Below are positions 16,189-47,610 of a stretch of 47,877 bases of DNA, piece after piece. A program made the position numbers and the translations under genes. The DNA comes from an uncultured Gammaproteobacteria bacterium (GTDB lineage: Bacteria; Patescibacteriota; Patescibacteriia; Patescibacteriales; UBA12465): the NCBI GenBank assembly GCA_964567645.1, contig CAZMNE010000001.1, positions 1-47,877 on the forward strand, in the 5' to 3' direction. The notes beneath the pieces were generated by a model. That model made no database searches, had not been told where the DNA came from, and worked only from the letters and a program-made list of their open reading frames with translations. Position 1 is the first letter of the stretch. Each line of letters starts with the position of its first letter.

Positions 16189-16199
16189 AGTATATAAAT

Positions 16200-19966: not shown

Positions 19967-19971
19967 AATTA

Positions 19972-19980
19972 TGTTAAAAT
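19972..19980 (+). promoter_or_regulatory. extended -10 element TGTTAAAAT directly upstream of rnhB
   Basis: TGnTAAAAT ends 8 nt before the rnhB ATG (19989), implying a leaderless or near-leaderless transcript. It lies inside the 22-nt gap between divergent genes. Confidence 0.3.
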
Positions 19981-19988
19981 AATTAAAT

Positions 19989-20615
19989 ATGAATTTAGAA
20001 AAAGAAAAAGAATTGTTTAATAATGGCAATAACTTAATTGCTGCCATTGATGAGGTTGGTCGTGGACCATTGGCTGGCCCAGTAGTTAGTGCTTGTGTTA
20101 TTATTGATAAGAACTTTGAAATAACTCCAGAATTAGAAAAAGTAAGAGACTCTAAAAAATTAAGTGCTAAAAATCGACAAGAGCTTTTTTCGATTATCAA
20201 AAATAACGTTAAAGCTGTGGAAATTGGGGTTTGTAATCATCAAATAATTGACAGGGTTAATATTTTGCAAGCTACCTTTATTTCTATGCAGAAAGCCTTA
20301 TTAAAAACAAATCTTAATCCTGACATTATTCTAGTTGATGGAAAATTTACTATTCCAAAAATTAAAATTTCTCAACAAGCTATAATTTCTGGAGATAATT
20401 CTATTTTTAGTATTGCTATGGCCTCTATTATTGCTAAAGTCAGTCGAGATTTTATGATGGAAAAATTTCATCAACAATATCCTCAATATGGCTTTGATAA
20501 ACATAAAGGGTATGGAACCAAATTTCACATGGAAATGATTAGTCTTTATGGTCCCTGCCCTATTCATCGACTCAGTTTTGCTCCTTTTTCTATTAAACCG
20601 GAAAAAATTAAATAA
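19989..20615 (+). CDS. rnhB: ribonuclease HII
   Basis: IAAIDEVGRGPLAGPVV catalytic motif, DSKKLS, ASIIAKV. 208 aa. Confidence 0.92.
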   Translation: MNLEKEKELFNNGNNLIAAIDEVGRGPLAGPVVSACVIIDKNFEITPELEKVRDSKKLSAKNRQELFSIIKNNVKAVEIGVCNHQIIDRVNILQATFISMQKALLKTNLNPDIILVDGKFTIPKIKISQQAIISGDNSIFSIAMASIIAKVSRDFMMEKFHQQYPQYGFDKHKGYGTKFHMEMISLYGPCPIHRLSFAPFSIKPEKIK

Positions 20616-22081: not shown

Positions 22082-23401
22082 TTATTTTTTTCCTAAAATA
22101 TATTCTTTAAATTTGGCAAAAAATATTTCAGCGCCTTTTTTTCTTAGCAAATGAACTTCATTTACTAAATCAGTGGCCTTAACCCATTTCCAGTCAGAAT
22201 GGTCCCAATAATTTATCTTAATATCACTATTATCGCCTTTAAATTCAGCTAATAATAAACTTTGTTTTTGCCCTTTAAATCCATAACGTCCTTTCCTGTT
22301 AGACTTATATTTAAATAAATTTTTATATATTTTTTTAGGAGTAAAATTAGTCACACCCAATTCTTCATATAATTCCCTACTACCAGCTAATTTTATTTTA
22401 TCCGATTCTATTCCTCCTTGAGGTAATTGCCAATGACCTGGCTCTTCACTTCTTTCTACTAATAATATTTGATAATTTTCTAAGGGATCCCGAGTCTTGT
22501 TTTCTAAAGCAATATAAGGAATATTAAATTTTCGATATAATACACAGGCAACGTTTTTTCTATAAAACAAAGGAGAAATAAATTTCCAATAAAAAAATTT
22601 CCAAGCAAAAACTAATACTGCTTGATACATTCTTTTATATCTCCAAGGCTGTCTAAAAAATCTCCATAACCACTCCAGCCCTATTCTTCTCATAATTTTA
22701 GGAGCTCGTTTAATTTTGCCTGTTAAAAAATCTAAAGCTCCGCCAATACCTATAGCTAATTTTATAGAAGTTATTTTTTTAAAATTATGCCAAATAAATT
22801 TTTCTTGATAAGGAGCACCAAAATTACAAATTAAAATATCGGGCTCAAATTCTAATAATTTGTTATGAACTAAAAAATCTAATTTATCATTTATTTTTTT
22901 TTCAATTTTTTTGGCAAATCTAGTAAAAAGATTATTTTTTCTCCAATTAAAATTAATAAGCTCTTTGGGTTGATTATTGATACTATAACTCAAATCACAA
23001 TCTTCTATTAAGAATTTTAAATTTGGATATCTATTGGATAAAGCGATTGATATTTCCGAAGAAGAAGATAACCCATTTTTATTATTAATAACTAAAACTT
23101 TCTTTTTTCTATTTTGAGCAATTTCAAAAATATCTAAAATAGTATCAGCCCCAGTAAACCTATTTAATTTTTTACCATTTAAAAAAGCAGCAATCTTTAA
23201 ACCAAAACCATCAGCCAGAGATAAATCAGCTTTATTTAAAATATAAAAAAGCTCCTCATCCTTAGAGGCTTTTAATATTATTTCGGGATTGGGTGTTACT
23301 ATATAATTTTGCTTATCAGAGTCTAAAAAATCATTAATTTTTAAAAATAACTCCTCCCTATTTAAATTATTATCAATATCAACTCCTAAAATGTTAATCA
23401 T
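22082..23401 (-). CDS. fusion protein: WecB/TagA/CpsF-family glycosyltransferase plus C-terminal Nudix hydrolase domain
   Basis: The N-terminal 250 aa carry TagA-family patterns (PNPEI, LSLADGFG, NFGAPYQEKFI, GIGGALDFLTGKIKRAP, GLEWLWR). A hydrophobic linker follows. The C-terminus has a Nudix box-like PQGGIESDKIKLAGSRELYEELGV. Confidence 0.75.
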   Translation of the reverse strand: MINILGVDIDNNLNREELFLKINDFLDSDKQNYIVTPNPEIILKASKDEELFYILNKADLSLADGFGLKIAAFLNGKKLNRFTGADTILDIFEIAQNRKKKVLVINNKNGLSSSSEISIALSNRYPNLKFLIEDCDLSYSINNQPKELINFNWRKNNLFTRFAKKIEKKINDKLDFLVHNKLLEFEPDILICNFGAPYQEKFIWHNFKKITSIKLAIGIGGALDFLTGKIKRAPKIMRRIGLEWLWRFFRQPWRYKRMYQAVLVFAWKFFYWKFISPLFYRKNVACVLYRKFNIPYIALENKTRDPLENYQILLVERSEEPGHWQLPQGGIESDKIKLAGSRELYEELGVTNFTPKKIYKNLFKYKSNRKGRYGFKGQKQSLLLAEFKGDNSDIKINYWDHSDWKWVKATDLVNEVHLLRKKGAEIFFAKFKEYILGKK

Positions 23402-23546: not shown

Positions 23547-24683
23547 ATGAAGAAAACGTTGTTTTTTGCGGTAATCGCAGTATTATTAGGATCTTTAGCC
23601 ATCCTTGGCAGCTCGTGTCAAAAAGAGTTAAATCGGCCAGAAATGCCGAACATTATGATGAGTTATAAAAGAACAGTAGATGGTGAGGTTATCACCGAAA
23701 GACAGGCCGTAGCTAATGGTCAGGTAGTTTTTTTGCCAGATTCAACGCTAAATGGCGCCTTTTGGACTGATCCGCTTACATCAGTAACCTGGACCTTATC
23801 GGGCCCACAAACCGGAGAATGGACTTCGGATCAATTGACAATTCAGTTTATGTATACCGGAACGTATACACTGGCAATTTCCTCTTTTGGAGTTGATTGG
23901 AGTATAACAATTATTGTTGGTGGAGATCCAACCGCTTCGCAAGTTGGAACTAGATTCGTTGGTTCAACATTTGATGGAACCATGTTTCATTATACATTTA
24001 GAATAAATCGTCCGATTTATGTGTTGGACGATGACATTCTTTTTCGTATAACCGAATTGGGTGATGATGTTGATGCTACTTATCTTCCACAACTAGATGG
24101 TGTTTCTTTTGTTGGAACGGATAGCATTGATATCACATTTGCTTATCCACCTAGCGGAAACGAAGCTTTAAATGTAAAATTCATTGCTGGCCGCATGGAA
24201 GGTACGGATCCGGTTTGGTTTAACGCCGATCCGGACGATCCTTACAAATGCCAAGATGCCCCACCGGCATTAACGGACATCTTGCAGGCCAATTTAAAAA
24301 ATGGCTTAGCATTACCTCCGGGAGAAACATTTGTAACTCCAATAGGAGCTTCAACTTCTTCAGCTGATTACGGCGAAGATTTACCCATTGTTTTAATGTC
24401 TGTAAATCCTGGAACTGGATTACTTCATTTATGGTTTTTTACTTTAAGTGAGAGCCCGGTATTTCGTTATAAAACAGATGATGACGAATTAGGTTTTACC
24501 GAGATGACTCCAACCTCGGCTGGAAGTGGTTATTGGCATGTAGCCCTACCACTGGCCCCAGCAAATGGATATTATACCTTTGATTTCGGAACCGGCACTG
24601 GCCTAACATTTGTTCAGGATCAATTCGTTTCCCAGTCAACCCTGTATTACATACCAACCAGCACATTAAAGCTTCATTTATAA
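23547..24683 (+). CDS. lipoprotein-type exported protein, compositional outlier, possible PKD/Ig-like domain
   Basis: MKKTLFFAVIAVLLGSLAILGSSC signal with Cys. Protein rich in T/G/D/P/A and poor in K/N/I, unlike its neighbours. VTWTLSGP..YTGTYTLAIS resembles a PKD-type fold. Confidence 0.7.
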   Translation: MKKTLFFAVIAVLLGSLAILGSSCQKELNRPEMPNIMMSYKRTVDGEVITERQAVANGQVVFLPDSTLNGAFWTDPLTSVTWTLSGPQTGEWTSDQLTIQFMYTGTYTLAISSFGVDWSITIIVGGDPTASQVGTRFVGSTFDGTMFHYTFRINRPIYVLDDDILFRITELGDDVDATYLPQLDGVSFVGTDSIDITFAYPPSGNEALNVKFIAGRMEGTDPVWFNADPDDPYKCQDAPPALTDILQANLKNGLALPPGETFVTPIGASTSSADYGEDLPIVLMSVNPGTGLLHLWFFTLSESPVFRYKTDDDELGFTEMTPTSAGSGYWHVALPLAPANGYYTFDFGTGTGLTFVQDQFVSQSTLYYIPTSTLKLHL

Positions 24684-27086: not shown

Positions 27087-27596
27087 ATGAAAAAGTTCTT
27101 TTTAATCGCAATCGTAGGAGGGTTAATCGCCCTCGGCACATCGTGTCAAAAGTATGAGTTTAATCCTGATGGTAGCTCAAATATTGACCCAGTTCCACCC
27201 GGAACAACTTATACCTGGCCAGGATGCAATCCTAAGCCGGTAGAATTTCTTGGAAAAACCGAAGCTCCGGGATGGGAAAATTGTTATGACTACTCATTCA
27301 GACTAAGTTTGGATGGAAGTCAAACCGACCCTAATCCGTTATCGTTGGAATCTTTTTCGATTCCACACGTAGGACCAGGTGGGAAAACAATTTACGAAAA
27401 TGTAGAAAATGATGCTACTTACACTATTACAAAAGTGTCTGGTGGGTACATTTACTACACAATCCGATCTGAACGCGGGCACACTCTTAAGTACAATATT
27501 TCCAAAAGAGATGGTACGAGAGAAGTATGGTTTTTGCGCCATGGATTGACGGTTGACGATGGAGTAAGTAATATGGTAACGTTTATAGCTGAATAG
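27087..27596 (+). CDS. small lipoprotein-type exported protein, compositional outlier
   Basis: MKKFFLIAIVGGLIALGTSC signal resembling that of 23547-24683. The only gene in the window with a strong SD (AAAGGAGGA, 7-nt spacing). G/P/T/Y-rich. Confidence 0.65.
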   Translation: MKKFFLIAIVGGLIALGTSCQKYEFNPDGSSNIDPVPPGTTYTWPGCNPKPVEFLGKTEAPGWENCYDYSFRLSLDGSQTDPNPLSLESFSIPHVGPGGKTIYENVENDATYTITKVSGGYIYYTIRSERGHTLKYNISKRDGTREVWFLRHGLTVDDGVSNMVTFIAE

Positions 27597-33404: not shown

Positions 33405-35114
33405 TTAATTTACCAAATTATCCTTTCTTTCTTTCATGTATTTTAACCAATCATCAAATATTTCTACAAAAACCTTAAAAGGAGCTTCGATAATAAAGTC
33501 TAAAACAAAAACAAAAACATTAACTTTAGAAGCATTATCTGACAAAAATTTACCCATAGCGATTATCGGGGTGTAAAAAAAGTCAAAAACAAACCCTAAT
33601 AACCCTTCTCTCGGCTCAATAATAATAAATTTTTTAATTTCTCTTTTAATTCTAAAACTAAAAAAACTGGCGAAAGTTAAAAAGAAAAGAAAGATAATAA
33701 TACTAACCCAATTAAAATCAATAAAATTTAGAACCTTGATAATAAAGTAAATAGTAACAAAAAAACCTCCTATATATAAAAGATTAAAAATAAAATCCAT
33801 CACCCAATTTCTTCGGGGAGGTTTTCTAAGTAAAATAGCATATTTTCTTCTTTTTTCACTAAAAACTATCTCCTCTACTCCATCAATTATTTTCTTAGTA
33901 TTTTCTTGAGCTGGTGACCAAGTAAATAAAATCATCATAAATAATAAAAATGCTGGGAAAGCTATATTTATTGCCAGAGAAAAGGGGTTTATCTCCTCTC
34001 CAAACCATTTAACCGCCGGAATTTCTATTAAAAAAACAAAGATAGATTTAGTTAAAAAGATATAAACAATACTACGAAAGCCAGATTTCCATAATTTATT
34101 TTTAATTCTTTTATATCTCTTTTCACAGGCCTCCTTAACTAAGTTAATGAAAGATTTATAATTATTCATAGCCTGATCATAAACCTTGATAGGATTATTT
34201 TCTATAATTTCTTTTAAGATAGAGAAATACAATGAATACGATTTTATTATTTTATCTAATTGTTTTTTTAAAGGATGTTCTAATTGCTGCTCTATGGCAG
34301 AATAAAGCACGTCTATCTTTTTAGAGATAGCCTCAATTTTCTCATTAGAATTATCCCCATCTATTTTTGACCAATCTTTATTATAATATTTAAATAATAT
34401 AAAACTTAACGAATCTAGATCAAAATTTAAAAAATTTCTAGCAATTCCAAGATAAATCTGAATATCTAGATCATTTTCAAAGGGCAAATCTCGAGGAAGT
34501 TTGATGTTATCCTTTAAAATATTAAACATATCACTAACAATTTCGTTCTCAACGTCATCTTTAGTGATATTATCCTCAATTTCAGCAGCCGCTAACGATA
34601 TAATCCAATTTAATAATTTATTTTCAGCCTTATTATTTCTTTTATTCTTGTTTTTCTTAGAAAAAAAATTAAAAGAAAAATTTTCTTTTTGGAAGCTATA
34701 ATATTTTAGTTTAATATATTTTTCCAAAATATTAGCTACTTCATAAATTTTTTTCTCAGGAATAGCATTATTTTCTAAATAACCAGCTTGAATTAACTCA
34801 GTTAAAAGATGAATAGATAATTCTTTACTTTTTGTTCCCTTAACTAAGCCCTCAATAACAATTTGACGTTTAAAAATACGTTTAATAGCGTTTTTTCTAA
34901 GCAAATGATCATCTTCGTAATCAACCGCGTTTCTAATTTTTTCATAAAAAAAGGCTAATCTAGAAACCATAGTAGATACTGTTATCTTTGACTCTCCCGA
35001 AGGATCATTTTCTGGTTTGTTTTTTTTAATATAAATAAGCTGAAATAATTTTTTAGCACTAATATTTAAATTAAATTTTCCTTCTTTTTTCTTAATTAAA
35101 TGGGGGCTAACCAT
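33405..35114 (-). CDS. polytopic membrane protein of unknown function
   Basis: 569 aa. About 340-aa soluble N-terminal region followed by about 6 predicted TM helices. No motif recognised. Confidence 0.6.
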   Translation of the reverse strand: MVSPHLIKKKEGKFNLNISAKKLFQLIYIKKNKPENDPSGESKITVSTMVSRLAFFYEKIRNAVDYEDDHLLRKNAIKRIFKRQIVIEGLVKGTKSKELSIHLLTELIQAGYLENNAIPEKKIYEVANILEKYIKLKYYSFQKENFSFNFFSKKNKNKRNNKAENKLLNWIISLAAAEIEDNITKDDVENEIVSDMFNILKDNIKLPRDLPFENDLDIQIYLGIARNFLNFDLDSLSFILFKYYNKDWSKIDGDNSNEKIEAISKKIDVLYSAIEQQLEHPLKKQLDKIIKSYSLYFSILKEIIENNPIKVYDQAMNNYKSFINLVKEACEKRYKRIKNKLWKSGFRSIVYIFLTKSIFVFLIEIPAVKWFGEEINPFSLAINIAFPAFLLFMMILFTWSPAQENTKKIIDGVEEIVFSEKRRKYAILLRKPPRRNWVMDFIFNLLYIGGFFVTIYFIIKVLNFIDFNWVSIIIFLFFLTFASFFSFRIKREIKKFIIIEPREGLLGFVFDFFYTPIIAMGKFLSDNASKVNVFVFVLDFIIEAPFKVFVEIFDDWLKYMKERKDNLVN

Positions 35115-36577: not shown

Positions 36578-37231
36578 ATGGAAAAAACATTTGATAAAGA
36601 AAAAAATTATTCAATTAGCGAAGCTATTGAACTATGTAAAAATTTAAAAAAAGCTAAATTTGATGCTTCAGTAGAAGCTCATTTTCGCTTAGGAATTGAT
36701 ACTAAAAAAGGTGATCAACAGGTTAGATCAGCCGTAAGTCTTCCTCATGGAACTGGAAAAACAATAAAAGTAGCTGCTTTTGTTTCAATAGACAAAGAAA
36801 AAGCTGTTAAAGAAGCCGGGGCTGATATAGTTGGTGGAGAAGATTTAATCGAGGAAATTAAAAAAACCGAGAAAACTGACTTTGAAGTAGCTATTGCTGA
36901 CATGGATATGATGAAAAGTTTAGCTAAAATTGCTAAAATTTTAGGCACCAGAGGCCTTATGCCCTCACCCAAGAACGAAACAGTCACCAATAACCCTGTA
37001 AAGGCCGTAGAGGAGCTTAAAAAGGGTAAAATAAGCTTCAAGAACGACGATACTGGCAATGTTCATGCTATTATTGGAAAACTTAGCTTTGATAACAAAA
37101 AATTAGAAGAAAACCTAGAAACCTTAATTGATGCTATAAAAAAAGCAAAACCAACCTCATCTAAGGGTATCTATATAAAAAACCTGACCATTAATTCTAC
37201 TATGGGTCCAGGAATAAAAATTTCTTTATAA
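36578..37231 (+). CDS. rplA: 50S ribosomal protein L1
   Basis: FDASVEAHFRLGID..QQVR..LPHGTGK, MPSPK. 217 aa, follows rplK. Confidence 0.94.
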   Translation: MEKTFDKEKNYSISEAIELCKNLKKAKFDASVEAHFRLGIDTKKGDQQVRSAVSLPHGTGKTIKVAAFVSIDKEKAVKEAGADIVGGEDLIEEIKKTEKTDFEVAIADMDMMKSLAKIAKILGTRGLMPSPKNETVTNNPVKAVEELKKGKISFKNDDTGNVHAIIGKLSFDNKKLEENLETLIDAIKKAKPTSSKGIYIKNLTINSTMGPGIKISL

Positions 37232-37244
37232 GATAAAGTATTTT

Positions 37245-37276
37245 AAAAAAGTCATCATTAATTTGATGACTTTTTT
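37245..37276. terminator. bidirectional rho-independent terminator between rplA and uppP
   Basis: A6 run, stem GTCATCA (37251-37257) / TGATGAC (37264-37270), T6 run. Confidence 0.8.
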
Positions 37277-37302
37277 GTTTTACCGTCAAGCTCTAATTAT
37301 TT

Positions 37303-38115
37303 TTACAATACATATAAAAATAAAAACAATACCACTCCAAGCAATATTCTATACCAACCAAAGATAGAAAAATTATTTTTCTTAATAAACTTTAATAAAA
37401 ACTTAATACTAATCCAAGCAACTATAAAAGAAGCTACAAAACCGATTATTAAGAAAATGATCTCTTCTAAACTAAAACTAAATCCAGTTTTAACTAAATC
37501 CAAAGAAGAGGCTGCTAGCATTGTCGGGATAGCTAATAGAAATGAAAACTCCACTATCACCAAACGACTAACCCCCATTGATAAGCCTCCTAAGATTGTA
37601 GCAGCTGATCGAGAAACTCCTGGGACTATAGCTAAAGCTTGAAAAATACCAACAACAAAACATTGCTTATAGCTCATAACACTAATGTCAACCTCAGTAT
37701 TATCTCCTAGGGCATCTTTTGCTTCCCTATTTTTTTCTTGATATTTTTTTTCCAAGAAAACAATAGCAATACCACCCAAAAATAAAGCTAAGGCAATTAT
37801 CTCTAGGCTTTCTTGTAAAAAATTTTTTACTAAACTATATCCCAATAATCCAATAATGGCGGTCGGAATAAAAGCAGTCATTAATTTTTTAAAATAAATA
37901 ACCTTATTACTCCAAAGTTTTTTCCAATACAAAATAATAACGGCTAAAATAGATCCAAATTGGATTATAATGATAAAACTTTTTAGAAATTCTGTTATTT
38001 CCAAATCCAATAAACTAGCCCCTAAAATAAGATGCGCGGTTGAAGAAATTGGTAAAAATTCGGCAAAGCCTTGTATTATTCCTAATACAAGGCTTTTTAT
38101 AAAAAAGATAGTCAT
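37303..38115 (-). CDS. uppP: undecaprenyl-diphosphate phosphatase (BacA/UppP)
   Basis: GIIQGFAEFLPISSTAHL and PGVSRSAATI motifs, 8 TM helices. 270 aa. Confidence 0.9.
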   Translation of the reverse strand: MTIFFIKSLVLGIIQGFAEFLPISSTAHLILGASLLDLEITEFLKSFIIIIQFGSILAVIILYWKKLWSNKVIYFKKLMTAFIPTAIIGLLGYSLVKNFLQESLEIIALALFLGGIAIVFLEKKYQEKNREAKDALGDNTEVDISVMSYKQCFVVGIFQALAIVPGVSRSAATILGGLSMGVSRLVIVEFSFLLAIPTMLAASSLDLVKTGFSFSLEEIIFLIIGFVASFIVAWISIKFLLKFIKKNNFSIFGWYRILLGVVLFLFLYVL

Positions 38116-38117
38116 AC

Positions 38118-41100
38118 TTATTTAACAGCTAATTCAAAAAATTCATCCAATAATTCAACTGTAATTTCTGATTTTTCCGAAGAGATAAAATTAATCCAAT
38201 CTAAATTATTTTCAACTTGGCTAATTAAAACATTTCTGTAAGCCCAAGAATTAACTATCCTCCATTCTCCATCGGTTTGAGGAAGTTTATTATAGTTCTT
38301 AACAAATAATTCTATAGCCCATTTTTCTCTAGCAATACTTCTTTCTATTGGTAAAATACCATAAGAAAATCTTAAAAATTGATTTAACTCTAAAATTAAA
38401 TTATTTTCATCAATTTTAGTAATATTATTTTCCTTAATAATATTATTTAATCGATAAAAATTACCTAAAAACTTTGGTTCTAATTCAGAATTTCTAATAA
38501 GCGGCACCCTATTATTAGCTATCTTTAAAACATCCTCAATGTCAGACTCTGTTTCTGGGACACTTCCCTTAACGTTAGTATAATTTATTACAGTAGCGGC
38601 TCTTTGCCCCTCACCCAATCTAATCGTGCTCTCTGTCCCATAGGCTAAATAATTTTTTAAGGATGTTTTTACTTCCGGAGTACTAGCTCTAATAAATAAA
38701 CTTTGGTGTTTAACTTCAACTTTTTTTTCTAGCTCCTCATCAGCTTTTTCAACGTTTACCGATGTTAATAATAATATCTTAACCTCAGCCTCAGGGCTCT
38801 TATCAACCATTTGAGCTTCAGTTAATAATTTAGCATCAACAACCCTAGCGTCTTCCTTGGATATGATTGCTAAATTTTCCTTTTTTGTATCAATTTTTTC
38901 TCTAATTAATTCTCCAGTTATGGGATTATAAACCTCTTTATACTCTGGTTCAATTGGCTTTGTTTCTACAACAGGAGTAGATGGATTATCTTTATGCTGA
39001 AGTATTGGTTTAGAAATTATTTGAAATTTTGCCGGAAAAATATTGCAATAACTATCTACAAAATTTAAAACTATTGACTGATCAACGGGATAAGAAACTA
39101 ATTTACCAGAAGAATAACTAAAAGCCGGAATATACAAAGAGTTACCTTTAATAATAAAATTACGATATTTATCGCTATCTTCAATATTTATATAAGCAAT
39201 CCTATTTGTTTCAGTTTTGTCGATTACATCAATTTTTTTATTAATCTCAGAGACTACATCGGTTTTTAATTTTTCATCTCCAATAATAACAGGCTCTTTT
39301 TCCTTAGAATTATCTAAATTAAAATTTATTTTAAAATATCTTAAATTCTTTAAACCAGAAAAAGAAGAAATATTTTGATTAATATATTTTTTTTGAATTT
39401 CTGAATTAATTAAATAATTAAAATACAAAACTCCAATCTTTTTCTGGCTATATTTATCTAGATATTCGTCATCAAAAGAAAAAATCTCAATCGGCAAACT
39501 TATTAATTCATTATTCTTTTTACAAACACTTATAAGATCCAAATCTACGTTAAAATGATATTGATAATTATTTTTAGTTATTTCATCCGAATAATCAATT
39601 TCCCAATTAGTATTAGTAGTTTTATTCTTCCAGTAACCGGAACCATCTTTTTCTTTTACATAACAAGCGACTGGATAATAAAAATCAATTTCTCTGTCTC
39701 TGTTAAATAAATAAACTAAGTTGTTATTCTGATCTAAAAAATTATAATCATAATCCCGGCCATCAACCTCAAACTTTAAAGAATTTAATTTTGGCTTTTC
39801 TGAGTCTAGAGCTAAAGTGAATCTAATATATCTACAATCAGGATTTAATTCTTTCATATATTCAAGATCCTTCGGAAAAAGATACTTATTGTTTAATTGT
39901 TCATCAACCAAATAATCACCCTTTTCTTGCTGATAAAAGAAAGTATTAGAATTAAAGCTAATTTTTCCATCTGAAGCTGATAAGGCCTCATTATTAAATA
40001 AAAATTGCTTAGCTGGAAAAGCTTTTATATTCGAATGAGAGGATCCATCAGATAAAGAAAAAGAAGTAGAAATAATTTTTTCTATTATTATTAAACCACT
40101 ACTATCTTTAATCCTAACTATTAAAGAAAAATCTTTTAAAACTTGATTATAATAAGGGATAAACTGCTTAGAATCATCTAATTGAGCTACAGCAAAATAA
40201 AATTTAATTAATTTATTTTCTTGATCATATTGTATCACAAAATCTTTGCTATCCGGATTATAAGAAGATCCATTTATTAAGAAAGAAAGACTAGCAACAT
40301 CCCTGGCCTCCTCTTCCGTTAAATTAAAGGAGGTGTCCAGATATCTGAACTGATGATCTCCTACTCCCTGCTCTTTGGATAAATTTAATTCTTTATAATT
40401 AGTAGAACCATCTTTATTTAAAATAATATCACTAACCTCCATCTTGCCGTCATAAATTTTTGTTAATGTATGTGGAATTAATTGACTAGAAATGTGATTT
40501 AAGGTTACATTTGAGGGTTGTTTTTGTTTGACATCCTCAATTAAAGCATTAACTTCTTTTTCTCCTACAAGACTACCTTTGCTATCAAAAAATTGAATTA
40601 ATAATTTTTGGGAATTATTTTCTAATGGAGTCCAATTAATTTTATCAGCCCTAGAGGCTAAGGCAAAATCAACTGAAATACTAGAACCAGATGAAGAAAA
40701 ATCATGATAGAATACCTTGCCTCCATCTATAGTCCAAGAGGCAGTCATGGCTTCTGGATAGGGATTGGAGATTATAGCAGTAAAATAGCCAATATCTTCT
40801 CCTAATTGACCCATGGCCTGATTATTAAAAGAAAAATTTAATAAATTTGAAAAAGTTCCATTATAGTCTAGTTCCCCTAAACTTTTTATAACGATTAAGC
40901 CATTGGAAATTTCTGCAAAATTGCTCAATTCCTTAGGATCTTTTATAGAAATAAATTCCTTAGCTAAAGCATTAGATTCTTTTATAATATTAAAAGAGAA
41001 ATTAACTTCTTGCTCACCTATTATGGAATTTTTCTCGTCTAATAGCCTAACAACTAAATTAAAATTCTGAGCACTTTCATAATAGGGATAAAAATTTTTA

Positions 41101-42035
41101 GAAAAATCTTCCTTAGCAATAGCAAAATAAACATTAATCTTTTCTTTTTCAGAATTAATTAAAAAAACATCATTATTTACTTGAAGCTCTTTCCCATTAA
41201 TAAAAAACTTTAAAGAAGAATAATCTTGATTAAGTTTTAGTAAAAAATCAAAATACCTGTTAGTTGATAATCCTATCATCTGCTCTTTTGATAATGTCAA
41301 GTCTTTATTGTCAGTACTTCCATCAGCCTTTAATACAATGTCACCAAAATTAATTGATCCATCCAATATTGTTGGATTTAAAATTTCTTCCGGAAAAAGT
41401 AATCCAGGCTTAATATTATCAGCAATAAAATTAGTTGGTTTTTGTTGTTTTATAGAGCTATTAGAAATAACCAAAGTTTTTATCCCTAATTCATTGCCAT
41501 CCTTATCAATAAACTTCATTAATAAATTTTGTGTTCCCCAATCAATCGGAGTCCAATTAACTCCATCTTTTTTTTCAGCCAAAGGATGATCAATATCAAA
41601 AGACCCATCAACCAAATTATAAGTATGTTGTTTATCGTTATTAACAACATAAACCACGCTCGCGGCTTCTGGATATGGAGATATAATGTTAAATCTAAAA
41701 TAACCAATATTTGATCCATAAAAACCATCTACTTGATCAGAAAAACTAAAATCAATAATCTCTTTAAGTGCTCCAGAATAACTTAATTCAGATATACCAT
41801 TAATATTTATCATTCCATTGGAGAGCGATGTCACTTTATCGGCTGTACTTGGATCTTTGTATTTAACAAACTCAACCGGCAAAAGATCATCAGCAGCTCG
41901 AGCACTAAAATTCTCAAAAACAAAAGGATTATTAAAGCGACTGTCTATCATAGCTTTAATATTGATAAAATGAATAGAAGAGACCACTAAAATCGAATAA
42001 AAAAATATTCGAAGAAAAAGATTTTTTGTTGTCAT
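38118..42035 (-). CDS. 1305-aa exported repeat protein of unknown function
   Basis: N-terminal signal/anchor (LFLRIFFYSILVVSSIHFINIKA). Two homologous modules of about 305 aa (residues about 55-355 and 360-665) share blocks such as SNG.I.I...ELxYxG, GYF..IISxPYPEA, INWTP, YF.A.A..D.SK.F.PYY. Stop lies 2 nt before the uppP start. Confidence 0.8.
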   Translation of the reverse strand: MTTKNLFLRIFFYSILVVSSIHFINIKAMIDSRFNNPFVFENFSARAADDLLPVEFVKYKDPSTADKVTSLSNGMININGISELSYSGALKEIIDFSFSDQVDGFYGSNIGYFRFNIISPYPEAASVVYVVNNDKQHTYNLVDGSFDIDHPLAEKKDGVNWTPIDWGTQNLLMKFIDKDGNELGIKTLVISNSSIKQQKPTNFIADNIKPGLLFPEEILNPTILDGSINFGDIVLKADGSTDNKDLTLSKEQMIGLSTNRYFDFLLKLNQDYSSLKFFINGKELQVNNDVFLINSEKEKINVYFAIAKEDFSKNFYPYYESAQNFNLVVRLLDEKNSIIGEQEVNFSFNIIKESNALAKEFISIKDPKELSNFAEISNGLIVIKSLGELDYNGTFSNLLNFSFNNQAMGQLGEDIGYFTAIISNPYPEAMTASWTIDGGKVFYHDFSSSGSSISVDFALASRADKINWTPLENNSQKLLIQFFDSKGSLVGEKEVNALIEDVKQKQPSNVTLNHISSQLIPHTLTKIYDGKMEVSDIILNKDGSTNYKELNLSKEQGVGDHQFRYLDTSFNLTEEEARDVASLSFLINGSSYNPDSKDFVIQYDQENKLIKFYFAVAQLDDSKQFIPYYNQVLKDFSLIVRIKDSSGLIIIEKIISTSFSLSDGSSHSNIKAFPAKQFLFNNEALSASDGKISFNSNTFFYQQEKGDYLVDEQLNNKYLFPKDLEYMKELNPDCRYIRFTLALDSEKPKLNSLKFEVDGRDYDYNFLDQNNNLVYLFNRDREIDFYYPVACYVKEKDGSGYWKNKTTNTNWEIDYSDEITKNNYQYHFNVDLDLISVCKKNNELISLPIEIFSFDDEYLDKYSQKKIGVLYFNYLINSEIQKKYINQNISSFSGLKNLRYFKINFNLDNSKEKEPVIIGDEKLKTDVVSEINKKIDVIDKTETNRIAYINIEDSDKYRNFIIKGNSLYIPAFSYSSGKLVSYPVDQSIVLNFVDSYCNIFPAKFQIISKPILQHKDNPSTPVVETKPIEPEYKEVYNPITGELIREKIDTKKENLAIISKEDARVVDAKLLTEAQMVDKSPEAEVKILLLTSVNVEKADEELEKKVEVKHQSLFIRASTPEVKTSLKNYLAYGTESTIRLGEGQRAATVINYTNVKGSVPETESDIEDVLKIANNRVPLIRNSELEPKFLGNFYRLNNIIKENNITKIDENNLILELNQFLRFSYGILPIERSIAREKWAIELFVKNYNKLPQTDGEWRIVNSWAYRNVLISQVENNLDWINFISSEKSEITVELLDEFFELAVK

Positions 42036-42088
42036 AAAATGAAAATTAATGCTAATTTTTATATTTAATTATTTTTAAATTATATCAC

Positions 42089-44608
42089 TTAGTTTATAGA
42101 ACGTAAAGCTATTTCTTTTAAAATGACATCACGATCTTTTCCGTATTTGTAGCGGCTTAATTGTCTAACAGCCTCAGCCAAACCATCTTTTTTTTCTCCC
42201 ATTAATGGCCAAATTGTTTGCAAGGAGAAAGGTCGAACTGATTGACCGTCAACTAATAATTTAACAAAAGCCCCACGACCAACATTTACTAAATCATATT
42301 CATTAAATACTGGGCCAAATTCCTTGACTAAAAGCTCAGCGTCCTCCGATCCAACTCTAAAACTTACCATAGTTCCAACGTTTCCAAAAACAGCATCTTT
42401 AATTTGAGTATCCTGGTTTTTACTAAGCTGACCAATATATTGATGAGCAATATTTAAACATAGAGCATATTTTCTAGCCTCTGATAAAATTTGACAGATA
42501 GAATTAGTGGTAAAGTTTTGAAACTCATCGATATATAGATAAAAATCTTTTCTCTGTTCTTGCGGAATATCAGTTCTAGATAAGGCTGCCATTAATATTT
42601 TTCCCACAATAATCATACCCAAAAGATAAGCGTTTGATTCTCCAATAGATCCTTTAGGCAAATCTACCATTAATATTTTTTGACTATCCATTAAATCTCT
42701 AAAATTAAAAGCACTGTTTTGTTGACCAATAATTGGCATCATCATGTCATTAGAAACAAAAGGTGTTAACTTAGAAGTAATATAAGGAACCATATTAGCT
42801 AAGGCCGCCTCTCCCCCAGCTTTTTCGGCCTCTTTTTGCCAAAAATCAACTACCGTTTTATTCTTACAAAGATTTAATTTCATTCGACGAAAATCTTCAT
42901 CCGCTAAAACTTTAGATATCTCCATTAAGGTTGAACCAGTTTCTGGACTATCCATAATTAACAATAAAGCATTTCTCATATATTGTTCAAACATCGGCCC
43001 ACCAGTAGCCTTAAGGTCATATAACTTATCAAAAATTCCTATCATTTCATTAATAACAAAAGTTTTTTGTTCTGGATAACGAGGATCATATTCTAATAAA
43101 TTTAATCCGATAGGTCTTTGGGTGTCAGCTGGAGAGAAAATAATTACATCCTCAGCTCTCTCTGGCGGAATACGATTTAAAATATCTTCAATCAGGTCTC
43201 CATTGGGATCCATTACGCAAACACCATGACCATTTTGAATATCTTGAATAGCTAAATTATTTAACAAAACAGATTTACCAGTACCAGATTTACCAACTAT
43301 ATACATGTGACGACGACGATCAACCGATTTAATTTTAACATCAGTTTTAATTCCTCTGTACACATTATAGCCAAGAATAATTCCATCTTTAGGAATATTA
43401 CTTGGAGCTGGGGCTGTTTTTGAAGTTAACCAATCAATATTAGGCGTTTCGGTATGAGGTAAGGGAAAATGAAACATACTTACTAATTCCTGGGTACTTA
43501 ATAAAAAACTTTGTCTCTCAATAAATCGTCGATAAATAAAATTATTAATAATATCTTCTTGATTTAATTTTTTAACTTTTCTAAAATAATTTCCATATTG
43601 ATAATAGGTATACTCACTGAAAGCATTAGTAATATTATCAAAAAATAAATTTGTTTTTTCTTGACTATCAGAACTAACTACCACCCTAAGATTAACATCT
43701 AAACCTGGCTTAGCATTTTTATCTTCCATTTTTTTTAACATCTCTCTCTCCTTCTCGGTTAACTCTTTTTTGTTTCCATCCATTTCTGGGCCTTTTTCGG
43801 CCTTCCCCATATTAAATAATCCCAACACAACATCATAAACTAGAAAATTTATTGTGTTATGAAAAGCTGAGCTACTGTTTCTAAAAATTTCGCTAACATC
43901 GTTTTTCTTATAAGCATTTAAAACAGATCTTTTTAATTTAGCATGCCAGTCTTTCTTAGCGCTTCTAACCACATATTGGATAGCAATACTTTCGTCGTTT
44001 TCTAGTTTTGACATTACATTTATTAAAGAATCCATGGGATCAGATTCCATGTCTTTATAATCTAAAAATGGAAAAATAAAGCTACGACCAGCCTTAAAAC
44101 GACCAGCCTTAATATAGCCCTGAGGATTAAAAGCATTATAATCATCTATCAACTCAACCGAGGCCTCAGGATAATAGGCATGAATTTGCTGTTCCACATA
44201 AAGAGCTTTATCTTTAGGAGCAGTAAGATAAAAAGAAATCTTACTTTTATTAGCGACTATTTCAAAAGAAAAATTATCATTTCTACCAAAAAACCAGTCT
44301 ATAATACTTTTTTTAACCCTCAATCCACCAATACTAGCAAAGATATTTTCTCCCCTGGAAATCTCCTCTTGTAATTGCTGAATAGTCAAGGAAGAATCAT
44401 GATCCTTAGGTTTTTCCTTGGGAAGCCTAACTAAAAATATAGAATTATTATTATTTTTATTTCTAACAGAAAAATATTTTATAAAATATCTAACTATAAA
44501 TAAAATAATTAAGAGAAATAAAAATATACCTAAAAAATATAGGTAATCCAGATTTCTTTCTACAAGCATCTCGCCTTCTTGAGATAATTGAGTAGTAAGG
44601 TCATTCAT
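42089..44608 (-). CDS. membrane-anchored TraD/TrwB/VirD4-type (FtsK/HerA superfamily) ATPase
   Basis: One TM helix (YLYFLGIFLFLLIILFIV) and an unassigned domain of about 380 aa. Walker A VGKSGTGKS (43271-43297), Walker B FYLYIDEFQNF, C-terminal AHQYIGQL..FGNVGTMVSFRVG block typical of coupling proteins. Confidence 0.8.
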   Translation of the reverse strand: MNDLTTQLSQEGEMLVERNLDYLYFLGIFLFLLIILFIVRYFIKYFSVRNKNNNNSIFLVRLPKEKPKDHDSSLTIQQLQEEISRGENIFASIGGLRVKKSIIDWFFGRNDNFSFEIVANKSKISFYLTAPKDKALYVEQQIHAYYPEASVELIDDYNAFNPQGYIKAGRFKAGRSFIFPFLDYKDMESDPMDSLINVMSKLENDESIAIQYVVRSAKKDWHAKLKRSVLNAYKKNDVSEIFRNSSSAFHNTINFLVYDVVLGLFNMGKAEKGPEMDGNKKELTEKEREMLKKMEDKNAKPGLDVNLRVVVSSDSQEKTNLFFDNITNAFSEYTYYQYGNYFRKVKKLNQEDIINNFIYRRFIERQSFLLSTQELVSMFHFPLPHTETPNIDWLTSKTAPAPSNIPKDGIILGYNVYRGIKTDVKIKSVDRRRHMYIVGKSGTGKSVLLNNLAIQDIQNGHGVCVMDPNGDLIEDILNRIPPERAEDVIIFSPADTQRPIGLNLLEYDPRYPEQKTFVINEMIGIFDKLYDLKATGGPMFEQYMRNALLLIMDSPETGSTLMEISKVLADEDFRRMKLNLCKNKTVVDFWQKEAEKAGGEAALANMVPYITSKLTPFVSNDMMMPIIGQQNSAFNFRDLMDSQKILMVDLPKGSIGESNAYLLGMIIVGKILMAALSRTDIPQEQRKDFYLYIDEFQNFTTNSICQILSEARKYALCLNIAHQYIGQLSKNQDTQIKDAVFGNVGTMVSFRVGSEDAELLVKEFGPVFNEYDLVNVGRGAFVKLLVDGQSVRPFSLQTIWPLMGEKKDGLAEAVRQLSRYKYGKDRDVILKEIALRSIN

Positions 44609-44610
44609 AA

Positions 44611-45129
44611 TTATTTTTTATCTTTATCTTTTTTTAGTTTTAAAATTTTATCTGTTTTTATTTTTGCTTCTTGTTCTAAAAAATGTTTATTAACTTTAGG
44701 AATATTTTTCAACCATCTTCTTATTAACTCAATAATCTTTCTAACCTTAACTTTAGTTTGACTTAATAATTTATTTATCTTATTTACTGTTTCAACTCCC
44801 TCTTCTTGAAATTTTTTTTGCTGCTTAGGTGTCATGCTCATAAAAACATCATTTAAACCATCGGACAAGATTATATCAATTTGTTTTCTTCTCTCTTCTT
44901 CAGAGCTGATTACAATCGGAGCTGGGGCAGCAGAAGAAGAAATTATTTTCTCCTCTTCTTCTTTTTGATCCTTTTTTTCTGGCCTCTTCTCAATATCAAC
45001 AACTTCTTTTTCAAAAGAAGACTCTTTAGTTTTTTCTCCTTTTTCTAAATCAAAATCACCATCTTCAAAAGAAGGCGGAATTATATCAATCTTTTCTTGT
45101 TCAAACCCTTTATTTAAATCTTGAGCCAT
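44611..45129 (-). CDS. 172-aa highly charged hypothetical protein
   Basis: Acidic N-terminal half, Lys-rich helical C-terminal half, no TM helix. 2 nt upstream of the ATPase and 4 nt downstream of the ferredoxin ORF. Confidence 0.6.
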   Translation of the reverse strand: MAQDLNKGFEQEKIDIIPPSFEDGDFDLEKGEKTKESSFEKEVVDIEKRPEKKDQKEEEEKIISSSAAPAPIVISSEEERRKQIDIILSDGLNDVFMSMTPKQQKKFQEEGVETVNKINKLLSQTKVKVRKIIELIRRWLKNIPKVNKHFLEQEAKIKTDKILKLKKDKDKK

Positions 45130-45133
45130 ATTA

Positions 45134-45310
45134 TTATTCCACTTTAATAGCCTCTACTGGACAACTATTGGCAGCATTTCTAGCACAATCAATATCCTGC
45201 TGACTAATAACTTCAGACTTACCCATAGAATTCATTTTAAAAATTTTAGGACACATATTAACACACATGCCACACCCGATACATTTATTTTGATCAATTT
45301 TTATTGACAT
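45134..45310 (-). CDS. 58-aa monocluster 4Fe-4S ferredoxin (below the ORF-track length cut-off)
   Basis: My translation: MSIKIDQNKCIGCGMCVNMCPKIFKMNSMGKSEVISQQDIDCARNAANSCPVEAIKVE. It shows CxxCxxCxxxCP plus a distal C..CP, the pattern of small single-cluster ferredoxins. Confidence 0.75.
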   Translation of the reverse strand: MSIKIDQNKCIGCGMCVNMCPKIFKMNSMGKSEVISQQDIDCARNAANSCPVEAIKVE

Positions 45311-45378
45311 AATAATAACAATTCATAGGCAAAGAAATTACCTATAAATTTAATTAATTTTTATTAAACTTCCTAATA

Positions 45379-45407
45379 ATTATAATACATTTTAAAATAA
45401 TTGACAA
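45379..45407 (-). promoter_or_regulatory. candidate promoter TTGTCA-17 nt-TATAAT for the ferredoxin/ATPase operon
   Basis: On the minus strand: -35 at 45407-45402, 17-nt spacer, -10 at 45384-45379. The -35 overlaps the -35 of the divergent rpmA promoter. Confidence 0.5.
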
Positions 45408-45429
45408 GTAAAAATAACTTTGTTATATT
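45401..45429 (+). promoter_or_regulatory. candidate promoter TTGACA-17 nt-(TGT)TATATT for rpmA
   Basis: TTGACA 45401-45406, 17-nt spacer ending in TGT, TATATT 45424-45429, 41 nt upstream of the ATG at 45471. Confidence 0.55.
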
Positions 45430-45470
45430 ATATTAGTAAAAAATATAATAAATAATAAAATTTAAAAAAT

Positions 45471-45746
45471 ATGGCACATAAAAAAGCTGGTGGATCAACC
45501 TCGTTAGGCCGTGATTCCCATAGTAAACGTCTAGGAGTTAAATTAGCCGATGGACAAAAGGCTAAAACTGGCTCCATTATTATTCGCCAACGTGGAACTA
45601 AATACCATCCTGGTGAAAATGTAAAAAAAGGAAAAGATGATACCCTGTTTGCAACAACTACTGGAACAGTAAAATTCAAAACCAAAAAAGCCAAAAAATT
45701 TAATGGACGATTAATCAATACTAAAGTAGTTAATGTAGCAAAATAA
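45471..45746 (+). CDS. rpmA: 50S ribosomal protein L27
   Basis: [37 protein letters not shown] signature. 91 aa. No rplU adjacent. Confidence 0.96.
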
Positions 45747-45764
45747 TACTAAAAAATATAAAAA

Positions 45765-45793
45765 AAGATAAGGTTAAACTCTTGTCTTTTTTT
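45765..45793 (+). terminator. weak rho-independent terminator after rpmA
   Basis: Stem AAGATAAG (45765-45772) / CTTGTCTT (45781-45788) with one G:U pair, 8-nt loop, T-run to 45793. Confidence 0.5.
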
Positions 45794-45820
45794 GTTATTT
45801 AATATTAGATAAAATAAAAA

Positions 45821-45880: not shown

Positions 45881-46690
45881 TTACTTCAGGGCCAAATAAA
45901 CAGCCGTGGGGTTTATTGAAATAAATACCCCTTCAACACCCATTGGCAACCTTTCTCTGAAATACCCCACTTTTACAATATTAGCTCTAACATTGTAATT
46001 TCCAGAAATTTCCACTCCCACCTTATAGATCGGATTCAAGGTCATTTCTGACTTTTCAAATCCAATAACTGGTGAAATATAAAATTCCGGAATCGGAAGA
46101 ATAAATCTTATTAAAGAAATATCGGCTTTCAAAGAGAGGCCCCCATTTTCGAAATAACTGTCAGCATACTCATTTGTGAATCCAAATTTCTGCATAGCGT
46201 TTACTTCGATACGAGGAAAAATTCTAGTTTCAGGTGTCAATAAAATTGAACCTGCCAAAATAATTCCAGGCTTAACTGTCTTCACCGAAAAAGTATCGGT
46301 TGTTCCAGTAATATAGCCATAATCTTTCTGATTAAATCGATAATAACCGGCGCCAATTTTCAATTCACCTAAACTAAAGTTTTGGCGAAAAGAAAGACCA
46401 AAATTAAATCCGGAAAGATCACGAGCGCGGTAGGTTTGAACCAAGGCATTGCTACCTTGATAACCACCAAATACTCCCACCTGGGAATTTGACGCTCCAA
46501 AAAAGAATTCGCCCTGAATACGGTTTGAGCTAAAAACTCCCACCTTTACCAGGGTATCACCTTCGGAATTAAGGTATTGATCACGGAAGGTCGTTTGACC
46601 TTCGTAGGTCAATGAAAATTTTTCAGTTTCAGTTTGCGCTAAAGCCATAAATGGCAGCACTACAATTAATATCAACAATATTCTTTTCAT
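45881..46690 (-). CDS. exported protein with outer-membrane beta-barrel-like sequence pattern, compositional outlier
   Basis: Signal peptide MKRILLILIVVLPFMALA/QT. About 14 short alternating hydrophobic/polar, Gly- and aromatic-rich segments (VGVFGGYQG, FNFGLSFRQNF, LKIGAGYYRF, YKVGVEISGNY). Arg is about as frequent as Lys, unlike the Lys-rich backbone. Confidence 0.6.
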   Translation of the reverse strand: MKRILLILIVVLPFMALAQTETEKFSLTYEGQTTFRDQYLNSEGDTLVKVGVFSSNRIQGEFFFGASNSQVGVFGGYQGSNALVQTYRARDLSGFNFGLSFRQNFSLGELKIGAGYYRFNQKDYGYITGTTDTFSVKTVKPGIILAGSILLTPETRIFPRIEVNAMQKFGFTNEYADSYFENGGLSLKADISLIRFILPIPEFYISPVIGFEKSEMTLNPIYKVGVEISGNYNVRANIVKVGYFRERLPMGVEGVFISINPTAVYLALK

Positions 46691-46818: not shown

Positions 46819-47610
46819 TTATTGGAATAAATTATCAATATCACCCGATTTTTTAACATTTTCATAATTATTTTCGTCCTCTTTTTCAGACATTTTTGCC
46901 TCCCTATTTTCTTCTATATTTCTCATGGTAGAAGCTGCTTGATTTATTGGTAATAATTTTTTCTTTTTTGGGGCTTTATTTTTATGACCAAACAAATGAA
47001 TATCATACTTTCTTTCTGGAAATAAATAAGTATAAACCAAGCCAAAAAACAAACTACCAGCAATAACAATAAGTAAAGCATACATCAAGTTTGGTTTAGT
47101 TGGATAGGTGGAAGCAATTGGTTGATCAATAACATTAATCTTTACCGAGCTACCTAAACCATGAAAATTTTGATGCTTAGTTATTAAAACATGATTAACA
47201 GCTAAAGCAATTTGGGTAGCCTGATAATTATCTTTATGATAAACACTAATATTAATAATTCCAGAGTCCTCTAAGCTCTTAGCTGAAACCGTTTTTTTCC
47301 AAGCTTTACTTTGCTTAATAGAGGTATCACCAAAATAATTTTTATCAATATTGAAATCTGAGTCCATTACTGATTCATAAAAAGAATTGGAGTAAACCAC
47401 TCTAGTTAATAAATCGGATAAATATTCTACTGACCGAGAGACTGAATAAGGATCAACTCGACCAGCTCCCTCTTGAATAACCAATATTTTTGATTTAGTG
47501 CTATATTTAAAATCTTGAGTTAATAAGACCAATAATCCTACTACCAAAAAAACTAAAAAAATAGAAAACAAAGTTTGACGTTTTTGTTTAATTAAAGCAA
47601 TTAAGTCCAT
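46819..47610 (-). CDS. Wzz/chain-length-determinant-like membrane protein
   Basis: N-terminal TM helix after MDLIALIKQKRQTLF, periplasmic-type region, second TM helix (LMYALLIVIAGSLFFGLVYTYLF), charged tail. The topology and N-terminus are typical of the Wzz/YveK family. Confidence 0.5.
   Translation of the reverse strand: MDLIALIKQKRQTLFSIFLVFLVVGLLVLLTQDFKYSTKSKILVIQEGAGRVDPYSVSRSVEYLSDLLTRVVYSNSFYESVMDSDFNIDKNYFGDTSIKQSKAWKKTVSAKSLEDSGIINISVYHKDNYQATQIALAVNHVLITKHQNFHGLGSSVKINVIDQPIASTYPTKPNLMYALLIVIAGSLFFGLVYTYLFPERKYDIHLFGHKNKAPKKKKLLPINQAASTMRNIEENREAKMSEKEDENNYENVKKSGDIDNLFQ

Follow-up and report, generated by a model that had tools for sequence, protein, structure and literature searches.

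Introduction

Type IV coupling proteins (T4CPs; VirD4, TrwB, TraD, TraG and DotL) are carried on mobile elements and possess Walker A and B motifs, an all-alpha insertion and an N-terminal membrane anchor, usually of two transmembrane helices. VirB4, exemplified by TrwK of the R388 type IV secretion system (T4SS), is a protein of about 800 amino acids (aa) that combines an N-terminal alpha/beta domain with a C-terminal ATPase. In the Patescibacteria, a recent survey (Quinonero-Coronel et al. 2025; PMC12102498) lists 5,713 VirD4-type T4CP homologues in 2,918 of 3,035 genomes, only 148 of them near virB4, and its authors state that exaptation of these homologues cannot be excluded; the location of patescibacterial T4CP homologues far from virB4 is, thus, already known from that source. 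Here we describe such an ATPase, of 839 aa, which is encoded on a stretch of 47,877 nucleotides (nt) from an uncultured member of the Patescibacteriota (contig CAZMNE010000001.1, positions 1 to 47,877; hereafter the window).

The ATPase gene is the third of five closely packed minus-strand genes, which encode, in this order, a 58-aa ferredoxin, a 172-aa protein (p172), the ATPase, a 1305-aa exported protein (the giant protein) and the undecaprenyl-diphosphate phosphatase UppP. A first-pass annotation had read this block, as a hypothesis, as a single module in which a coupling-protein-like motor would serve a giant surface protein. The analysis presented here leads us to regard the 8-kb block as probably composite and not as one functional module, with p172 and the ATPase forming the conserved pair at its core.

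The NTPase domain is of the coupling-protein type

Judged from its sequence, the ATPase is a coupling-protein-type (TraD/VirD4/TrwB) nucleoside triphosphatase (NTPase), as had been annotated initially. Both TrwB_AAD_bind (PF10412; 37.8 bits, cut-off 20.5) and TraG-D_C (PF12696; 23.5 bits, cut-off 22) score above their Pfam cut-offs, and homologues of the ATPase carry PF02534 as well. TrwB was the best sequence match in the PDB, at 5e-6 with the single sequence and 6.7e-8 with the family profile, followed by DotL. Similarly, alignment of the family profile with hhalign yielded 96% (E 3.7e-9) for TrwB over 261 columns, which extend from Walker A to past Walker B and run through the region of the all-alpha insertion, versus 7.5% for the VirB4 protein TrwK. 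In the structural model a stretch between the two Walker motifs, aa 513-641, consists of helices only (at moderate confidence of 60-80), as in T4CPs, and the Walker motifs and other catalytic positions are invariant across a 24-sequence alignment reaching down to 33% identity. At least 1794 homologues are detectable, and the best 120 are all at least 62% identical to the ATPase.

The scores against NCBIfam TraD models are far below the cut-offs, and the ATPase is therefore no TraD equivalog. Membership in the VirB4 family was likewise not found at the sequence level: the match of TIGR00929 is confined to the Walker A region (E 0.005; 15 bits, cut-off 643), and PF03135 (VirB4) was absent from the ATPase in Pfam scans. 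With FtsK/SpoIIIE and HerA the ATPase shares the superfamily and the membrane anchoring, and its neighbours are recurrently replication or division genes, but it has no gamma domain and its scores against the Pfam models FtsK_SpoIIIE and HerA stay below the cut-offs. Replacement of FtsK by the ATPase was considered on account of dnaX, topA and xerC neighbours, and was down-weighted as ftsK is annotated in the patescibacterium TM7x.

An N-terminal domain with a predicted VirB4-like fold

In contrast to T4CPs, in which two transmembrane helices usually lead into the NTPase, the ATPase has one hydrophobic segment (aa 18-49), and a domain of 360 aa, DUF8128, separates it from the NTPase. The charge distribution, with an acidic N-terminal tail and basic residues after the helix, suggests an N-out, C-in topology. 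A phmmer search with DUF8128 against 1.84 billion cluster representatives retrieved 1632 clusters at E<=1e-3. The domain is always located at the N-terminus of proteins of ~780-880 aa, and all 27 listed representatives of at least 780 aa are 804-881 aa long and can be aligned with the query in the same order along almost the entire protein, indicating that the DUF8128-ATPases are a deep family of fixed architecture. A literature search found no mention of DUF8128 or PF26449.

The AlphaFold model of DUF8128 alone (pLDDT 82.9, pTM 0.81; predicted local distance difference and template-modelling (TM) scores, respectively) was compared with the PDB using Foldseek. The 12 best matches were all TrwK/VirB4 of the R388 T4SS, with E-values of 4e-6 to 5e-5, a probability of 1.0, TM scores of 0.39-0.46 and 8-10% identity, and the next match other than TrwK followed at 7e-3. 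The VirB4 entry 4ag6, which holds the C-terminal domain only, was not among the fold matches, suggesting that DUF8128 matches the N-terminal domain (NTD) of VirB4. The full-length model has full-length VirB4 as its best fold match, with HerA and DndH also among the matches. The ATPase thus resembles TrwK in its order of domains and in its length, and TrwK provides the best PDB matches for both the whole model and the isolated N-domain, but the ATPase differs from VirB4 in lacking sequence similarity to the VirB4 NTD or family, in having an NTPase that is of the T4CP type by sequence, and in occurring among Falkowbacteria, which possess a separate bona fide VirB4. We consider the VirB4-NTD-like character of the DUF8128 model a supported structural resemblance, with homology unproven.

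A small gene paired with the ATPase gene

To follow the gene neighbourhood, 80 species-level loci were fetched round ATPase homologues of 52-94% identity, and the window genes were mapped onto each (L-numbers are labels of related loci). The p172 gene is found directly upstream of the ATPase gene in 74 of the 80 loci. Five of the remaining six are cut by a contig end, so that 75 loci are testable, and L078 alone truly lacks p172. Thus, the linkage of the ATPase to the 172-aa gene that the first-pass annotation had anticipated was borne out (74/75), whereas the linkage to the giant gene that it had anticipated as well was not (2/80). The stop-to-start gap between the p172 and ATPase genes, with a median of 3 nt, does not exceed 10 nt in 59 of the 74 loci; the genes overlap (ATGA) in three pairs, and in L068 they are fused in frame to encode a 1010-aa product. 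In addition, the pair persists in loci in which every flanking gene differs (L067-L080, L115-L147). As far as gene spacing can tell, the two genes are almost certainly transcribed together, with coupled translation, and they probably represent an ancient two-gene unit conserved across the Patescibacteria. It might be argued that the adjacency is inherited synteny without a functional link, as synteny is high overall in the Falkowbacteria-like clade, where the divergent L27 gene is adjacent in 56 of the 80 loci and dnaX in 63. Against this, the pair survives where both flanks have changed and shows gaps of 1-5 nt, start/stop overlaps and the in-frame fusion, and we regard mere inheritance of gene order as highly improbable.

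The N-terminal half of p172 is variable, acidic and proline-rich, while the C-terminal ~90 residues are conserved and helical and comprise a near-invariant motif, W-L-x-x-I-P-G-V-N-x-F-F-L-E-Q-E-A-K-I-K-T-D-K-I, with the helix W-L...FLEQEAKIKTDKI. The protein matches no Pfam or NCBIfam model. Among 120 listed of its 264 detectable homologues, Pfam domains are lacking throughout, and all those that carry a name are 'hypothetical proteins' of the Patescibacteria group. Searches of PDB and Pfam by single sequence and by profile gave weak and inconsistent matches (DUF2057 in 8 of 34 members), which were rejected as uninformative.

The arrangement is reminiscent of VirB3-VirB4 in that a small gene lies 2-3 nt upstream of the ATPase gene, just as virB3 of R388 precedes virB4 by 2 nt, and in the occasional fusion of the two. 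However, p172 has neither a hydrophobic segment nor a family match, and was thus not found to qualify as a VirB3.

Chromosomal context and the type IV secretion system

The window consists of housekeeping genes (leuS, dnaX, serS, alr, gltX, pyrG, metG, nusG-rplK-rplA and rpmA), and we consider it a chromosomal stretch and no mobile element. Its GC content is ~29%. Homologues of the ATPase belong to the Patescibacteria, the nearest named ones being from Candidatus Falkowbacteria, class ABY1, and we assign the window to a Falkowbacteria-like patescibacterium. The neighbourhood set was complemented by 80 more distant metagenomic loci, with ATPases of 30-52% identity, to give 160 loci with 5-8 kb flanks. 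In every sampled lineage the ATPase gene is flanked by housekeeping genes (rpmA, dnaX, serS, cysS, L10/L12, tgt, secDF, topA). No T4SS or relaxase genes are apparent beside it in the 160 loci. In the window, a Pfam scan of the 28 other open reading frames (ORFs) that reach 100 aa, the four ribosomal/NusG genes excepted, gave no match to VirB4, VirB6 or relaxase; 7 of the 28 belong to no family. The view that T4SS genes are missing beside the ATPase was thereby corroborated, and genetic association with a relaxase or VirB4 locus was found neither in the window nor in the 160 loci. This lack of nearby relaxase and T4SS genes distinguishes the ATPase from T4CPs, as do the dedicated gene for a small soluble partner and the chromosomal, apparently near-universal and apparently vertical occurrence in the phylum, the last being indicated by conserved housekeeping synteny.

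The earlier description of the ATPase as an orphan holds locally, but not for the genomes of relatives. Four related Falkowbacteria genomes were compared with the supplementary tables of PMC12102498, and three of them have VirB4 at another place. HGW-Falkowbacteria-1 (L005), with an ATPase 81% identical to that of the window, is listed there as VirB4-positive, and another Falkowbacteria genome has dispersed genes for t4cp1, VirB3, four VirB2 and VirB4. The ATPase is, therefore, an orphan only locally. It resembles the T4CP homologues of that survey in its location away from virB4 and in being possibly exapted; the t4cp1 matches, about one per genome, are probably the same proteins as the DUF8128-ATPases. 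Unlike here, the available parts of the survey hold no mention that we found of a DUF8128 N-domain, a VirB4-like fold or a conserved small partner gene.

We propose that, as in other translocases of the FtsK/HerA superfamily, the ATPase would form oligomers on the cytoplasmic side of the membrane, and that p172 would bind it via the conserved C-terminal helix, as an adaptor or regulator. The most likely role of the pair would be to receive substrates for, or to energise, the T4SS that Falkowbacteria encode elsewhere on the chromosome in dispersed genes (VirB4, VirB3, VirB2), and to which the ATPase may dock through its VirB4-like N-domain.

The cooperation of the pair with a T4SS is inferred, and several observations weigh against this interpretation. 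In PMC12102498, VirB4 was recorded in 2,417 genomes versus 2,918 with T4CP homologues, and in Southlakia the T4CP homologue is non-essential for epibiotic growth while T4SS genes are essential; the wider spread of T4CPs and their dispensability in Southlakia are the grounds on which a T4SS-independent role can be argued. The hidden Markov model of p172 matches only 6 of the 80 more distant loci. About a dozen distant loci of another subfamily do have a small, often overlapping ORF upstream of the ATPase gene, with a low-complexity N-terminal part and a W-L-containing amphipathic helix at the C-terminus, which suggests a fast-evolving partner; this reading depends on small ORFs with a short W-L helix motif. 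The VirB4-NTD likeness of DUF8128 is drawn from an AlphaFold model whose VirB4 matches have TM scores of only 0.39-0.46, and neither a Pfam scan of 23 diverse N-domains nor hhalign against TrwK gave a signal for the VirB4 NTD. Finally, the full-length AlphaFold model has a low-confidence ATPase core, and for this reason only the model of the N-domain was used for conclusions.

We therefore also considered that p172 and the DUF8128-ATPase form an exapted, T4SS-independent translocase with a housekeeping role, such as the import of nucleic acids from a host or the environment, or the handling of chromosomal or other DNA at the membrane. Next to the distribution of T4CP homologues among the 3,035 genomes, the few located near virB4 and the Southlakia data, for which the authors of PMC12102498 leave exaptation possible, this would agree with the high conservation of the ATPase noted above for the best 120 homologues, with purely housekeeping neighbours that recurrently include dnaX, topA or an xerC-like gene, and with the import of host RNA by a cultured patescibacterium through an unresolved route. 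However, any substrate would be conjectural, incompleteness of metagenome-assembled genomes could account for missing VirB4, and the Southlakia T4CP may lie outside the DUF8128 family. A role in segregation is not obviously vacant either, given ftsK in TM7x and the further ATPases matched by the t4cp2 profile, and a VirB4-like N-domain would fit docking to membrane parts of a T4SS. Such a translocase is possible, although we think it unlikely. A more far-reaching version, by which the DUF8128-ATPase and its partner would be a Patescibacteria-wide T4SS-independent motor, a third lineage beside VirB4 and VirD4 that joins a VirB4-like N-domain to a VirD4-like NTPase and moves nucleic acid across the membrane, e.g. 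in the acquisition of host DNA or RNA, appears to us doubtful at best. We accordingly retain the dispersed T4SS as the most likely partner of the pair.

The sampled loci revealed further variations around the ATPase. In several other lineages (L067-L080, L081-L084, L111, L115, L123, L135, L141, L142, L146) a conserved protein of ~175-250 aa with the motif P-x-N-Y-A-S-K-S-K-L-V-x-G-D-x-L-K-L-T-I is encoded downstream of the DUF8128-ATPase, frequently with dnaX as the next gene; in this window it does not adjoin the ATPase. The ATPase gene is tandemly duplicated in L081-L084, L144 and L149. In L085-L127 the ATPase is lengthened at its C-terminus to 900-1160 aa, and a protein of ~346 aa encoded upstream of it contains, as read by eye, a sigma-70 region-4-like motif and HARE-HTH-like repeats.

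The giant protein and uppP

The giant protein is exported and repetitive, as initially described: a hydrophobic N-terminal segment (aa 6-28, by hydropathy) serves as the predicted export signal and is followed by two repeats of ~300 aa that are 36% identical (BLASTP, E 4e-54). Searches against Pfam, NCBIfam and the PDB, the last by sequence as well as by profile, were all empty, and only 6 homologues were found among 5.8 billion (5.8e9) proteins. In an alignment of these sequences (A2) invariant columns are dense from aa ~1120 to 1300. Within the 80 loci the giant gene occurs in two, L001 and L002, the closest relatives; these and two further carrier contigs, L161 and L162, show the order ATPase-giant-uppP, as in the window. 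The giant protein diverges faster than the ATPase, with 69% and 42% identity where the ATPase retains 94% and 87%.

In nine nearer relatives (ATPase 77-85% identical) uppP directly follows the ATPase gene, -4 to 23 nt behind it, and in total uppP is found downstream of the ATPase in 11 of the 80 loci. In 63 loci the ATPase gene is followed instead by dnaX and serS, by genes for one GHL15/FG-GAP and one DUF11 protein, and by alr, a set that is located at 3.4-12.3 kb in this window. Based on the occurrence in 11 and 2 of the 80 loci, respectively, we interpret the adjacency of uppP as a lineage-specific rearrangement and the giant gene as a later insertion at the ATPase-uppP junction. In such a scenario, a monocluster ferredoxin gene stands in front of the pair in the Falkowbacteria-like clade and would supply the promoter; a genus-level rearrangement would have placed uppP behind the ATPase; and later an orphan, fast-evolving gene, which is preceded by a promoter-like element of its own and encodes a secreted protein with repeats, would have been inserted between ATPase and uppP. 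The giant protein would then be an unrelated surface protein and UppP part of ordinary cell-wall housekeeping.

The first-pass annotation had put forward a different hypothesis, namely that the giant surface protein would be exported or deployed by the VirD4-like ATPase and that uppP would provide the tie to lipid-carrier recycling. Tight spacing, the lack of a strong terminator between the genes, the invariable position of the giant gene between ATPase and uppP in the four related carriers and the N-terminal export signal would all be compatible with a motor and its cargo. On the other side, 78 of the 80 species keep the ATPase without the giant gene, and the absence of a conserved linkage was the very finding by which the proposal was to be given up. 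Furthermore, the giant gene has a conserved extended -10 element of its own that is absent in non-carriers, the giant protein evolves far faster than the ATPase, and its Sec-type signal peptide implies export by Sec and makes T4CP-dependent export unnecessary. The tie to lipid-carrier recycling is not supported either, the position of uppP being lineage-specific. We thus hold a motor-plus-cargo operon to be very unlikely; functional coupling of the giant protein and UppP to the ATPase is not supported and both appear to be passengers, for which reason the idea of a minimal motor plus adhesin should not be propagated.

Layout and signals of the five-gene block

The arrangement of five minus-strand genes with gaps of 4, 2, 53 and 2 nt was found as first annotated (Table 1), and the two signals proposed to bound the block were recovered as well. 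The promoter-like site upstream of the ferredoxin gene has the joint best score within 37000-45800, and the hairpin between uppP and rplA is strong, folding at -15.8 kcal/mol (z = -6.2). One terminator-like hairpin within the giant gene (41668-41651) is weak and of a kind occurring at chance rate. Promoter-like sites are, as a class, not enriched (50 found versus 45 expected). However, the close relatives L001-L008, L012 and L014 retain CTTGTCAAT...TATAAT of the site upstream of the ferredoxin. The TTGTCAA of this site, on the other strand, provides TTGACA as the -35 for the promoter of the divergent rpmA (L27). The internal promoter-like site in front of the giant gene lies partly in the last part of the ATPase gene and partly in the spacer of 53 nt. 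Its extended -10, TGATATAAT, is kept in four of five giant-gene carrier sequences, whereas the fifth retains TATAAT; nine relatives without the giant gene do not have it. The putative signals of a single operon, short gaps and outer promoter-like site and terminator, are hence accompanied by a conserved internal extended -10 before the giant gene.

Table 1. Location of the genes, domains and signals of the block within the window
Feature	Position	Strand	Basis
Bidirectional intrinsic terminator between uppP and convergent rplA	37245-37276	.	13-bp stem, flanking A and T runs
uppP/bacA, undecaprenyl-diphosphate phosphatase	37303-38115	-	BacA 1e-70
1305-aa orphan exported protein, presumed lineage-specific insertion	38118-42035	-	six homologues, no family match
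Giant protein, C-terminal ~195 aa, best-conserved part	38121-38708	-	six-homologue comparison (alignment A2)
Giant protein, repeat 2 (aa 357-661)	40053-40967	-	BLASTP against repeat 1
Giant protein, repeat 1 (aa 52-350)	40986-41882	-	BLASTP against repeat 2
Internal promoter-like site TTTACG-17-TATAAT with upstream TG (TGATATAAT, extended -10)	42107-42079	-	10/12 match plus TG
839-aa membrane-anchored ATPase	42089-44608	-	transmembrane helix, DUF8128, TrwB/VirD4-type NTPase with all-alpha insertion
Walker B YLYIDE (aa 690-695)	42524-42541	-	sequence; D and E invariant in alignments A1 and A4
Walker A GKSGTGKS (aa 439-446)	43271-43294	-	sequence; invariant in alignments A1 and A4
DUF8128 (PF26449; aa 45-410), predicted VirB4-NTD-like alpha/beta fold	43379-44476	-	Pfam name, model, Foldseek
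Single N-terminal transmembrane helix (aa ~22-48)	44465-44545	-	hydropathy; model helix 5-49
p172, proposed cytoplasmic partner of the ATPase	44611-45129	-	homologues; no Pfam domain, no transmembrane segment
Ferredoxin, 58 aa	45134-45310	-	Fer4_13 5e-16 over full length
5'-leader hairpin ATAGG...CCTAT with T-rich run, ~15 nt before ferredoxin start	45325-45345	-	seen in sequence
Putative sigma-70-like promoter TTGTCA-17-TATAAT upstream of ferredoxin	45407-45379	-	11/12 match

The ferredoxin displays the CxxCxxC...CP ligands of a monocluster [4Fe-4S] ferredoxin (C10, C13, C16 and C50-P) in addition to C20 and C42. Its gene precedes that of p172 in 61 of the 80 loci and is missing in more distant lineages that retain the p172-ATPase pair. 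The leader hairpin in front of it has no Rfam match, and its RNAalifold consensus is weak; however, since a hairpin with T-run recurs at the equal position in the relatives L001-L014 with different stem sequences, it could be an attenuator.

Other features of the window

An Rfam scan of the whole window returned no family. Upstream of the block, two minus-strand genes, whose syntenic position upstream of rpmA is shared by about ten close relatives, encode proteins of no family, namely p269 (45881-46690), beta-rich with a signal peptide, and p263 (46819-47610), with two transmembrane helices in a Wzz-like topology. A 569-aa protein, similarly of no family (33405-35114, minus strand), consists of a soluble N-terminal part of ~340 aa and a polytopic C-terminal membrane part, and is conserved beside rsmI-metG in 29 related loci. 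Two minus-strand genes encode unusual domain combinations: a 903-aa UvrD/PcrA-type helicase (17489-20200) in which an RNase_T/DnaQ-type 3'-5' exonuclease domain (aa 546-699) is embedded within UvrD_C, and a WecG/TagA-family glycosyltransferase (22082-23401) with a NUDIX hydrolase domain fused at its C-terminus.

On the plus strand, two lipobox proteins of no family (23547-24683, LGSSC; 27087-27596, LGTSC) have an amino-acid composition unlike the rest of the window and are located in the local stretches of highest GC (0.34 versus ~0.29); they may have been acquired horizontally. At ~13600-16200 convergent genes occur and the GC skew changes sign at about 15.6-16.2 kb, beside a XerC/D-type recombinase gene (13610-14581) and a truncated second copy that retains the SAM-like N-domain only (15058-15657). 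This region could be replication-terminus-like or a decayed integration site.

Implications

Patescibacteria, which account for a large part of bacterial diversity, rely on their hosts for nucleotides and lipids, and how macromolecules pass their envelope is unresolved. A near-universal VirD4-type ATPase encoded among housekeeping genes would be a concrete candidate for a component of envelope transport, provided that the t4cp1 matches of PMC12102498 are the DUF8128-ATPase family, and the obligatory small partner and the VirB4-like N-domain strengthen this candidacy. The interest of the locus lies in these two properties of a phylum-wide ATPase and not in the giant protein. In addition, the hybrid architecture, predicted VirB4-like at the N-terminus and of the T4CP type in the NTPase, bears on the divergence of VirB4 and VirD4. 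If a T4SS-independent motor were to prove true after all, the pair could be, for example, the missing motor for the acquisition of host DNA or RNA in these nucleotide-auxotrophic epibionts.

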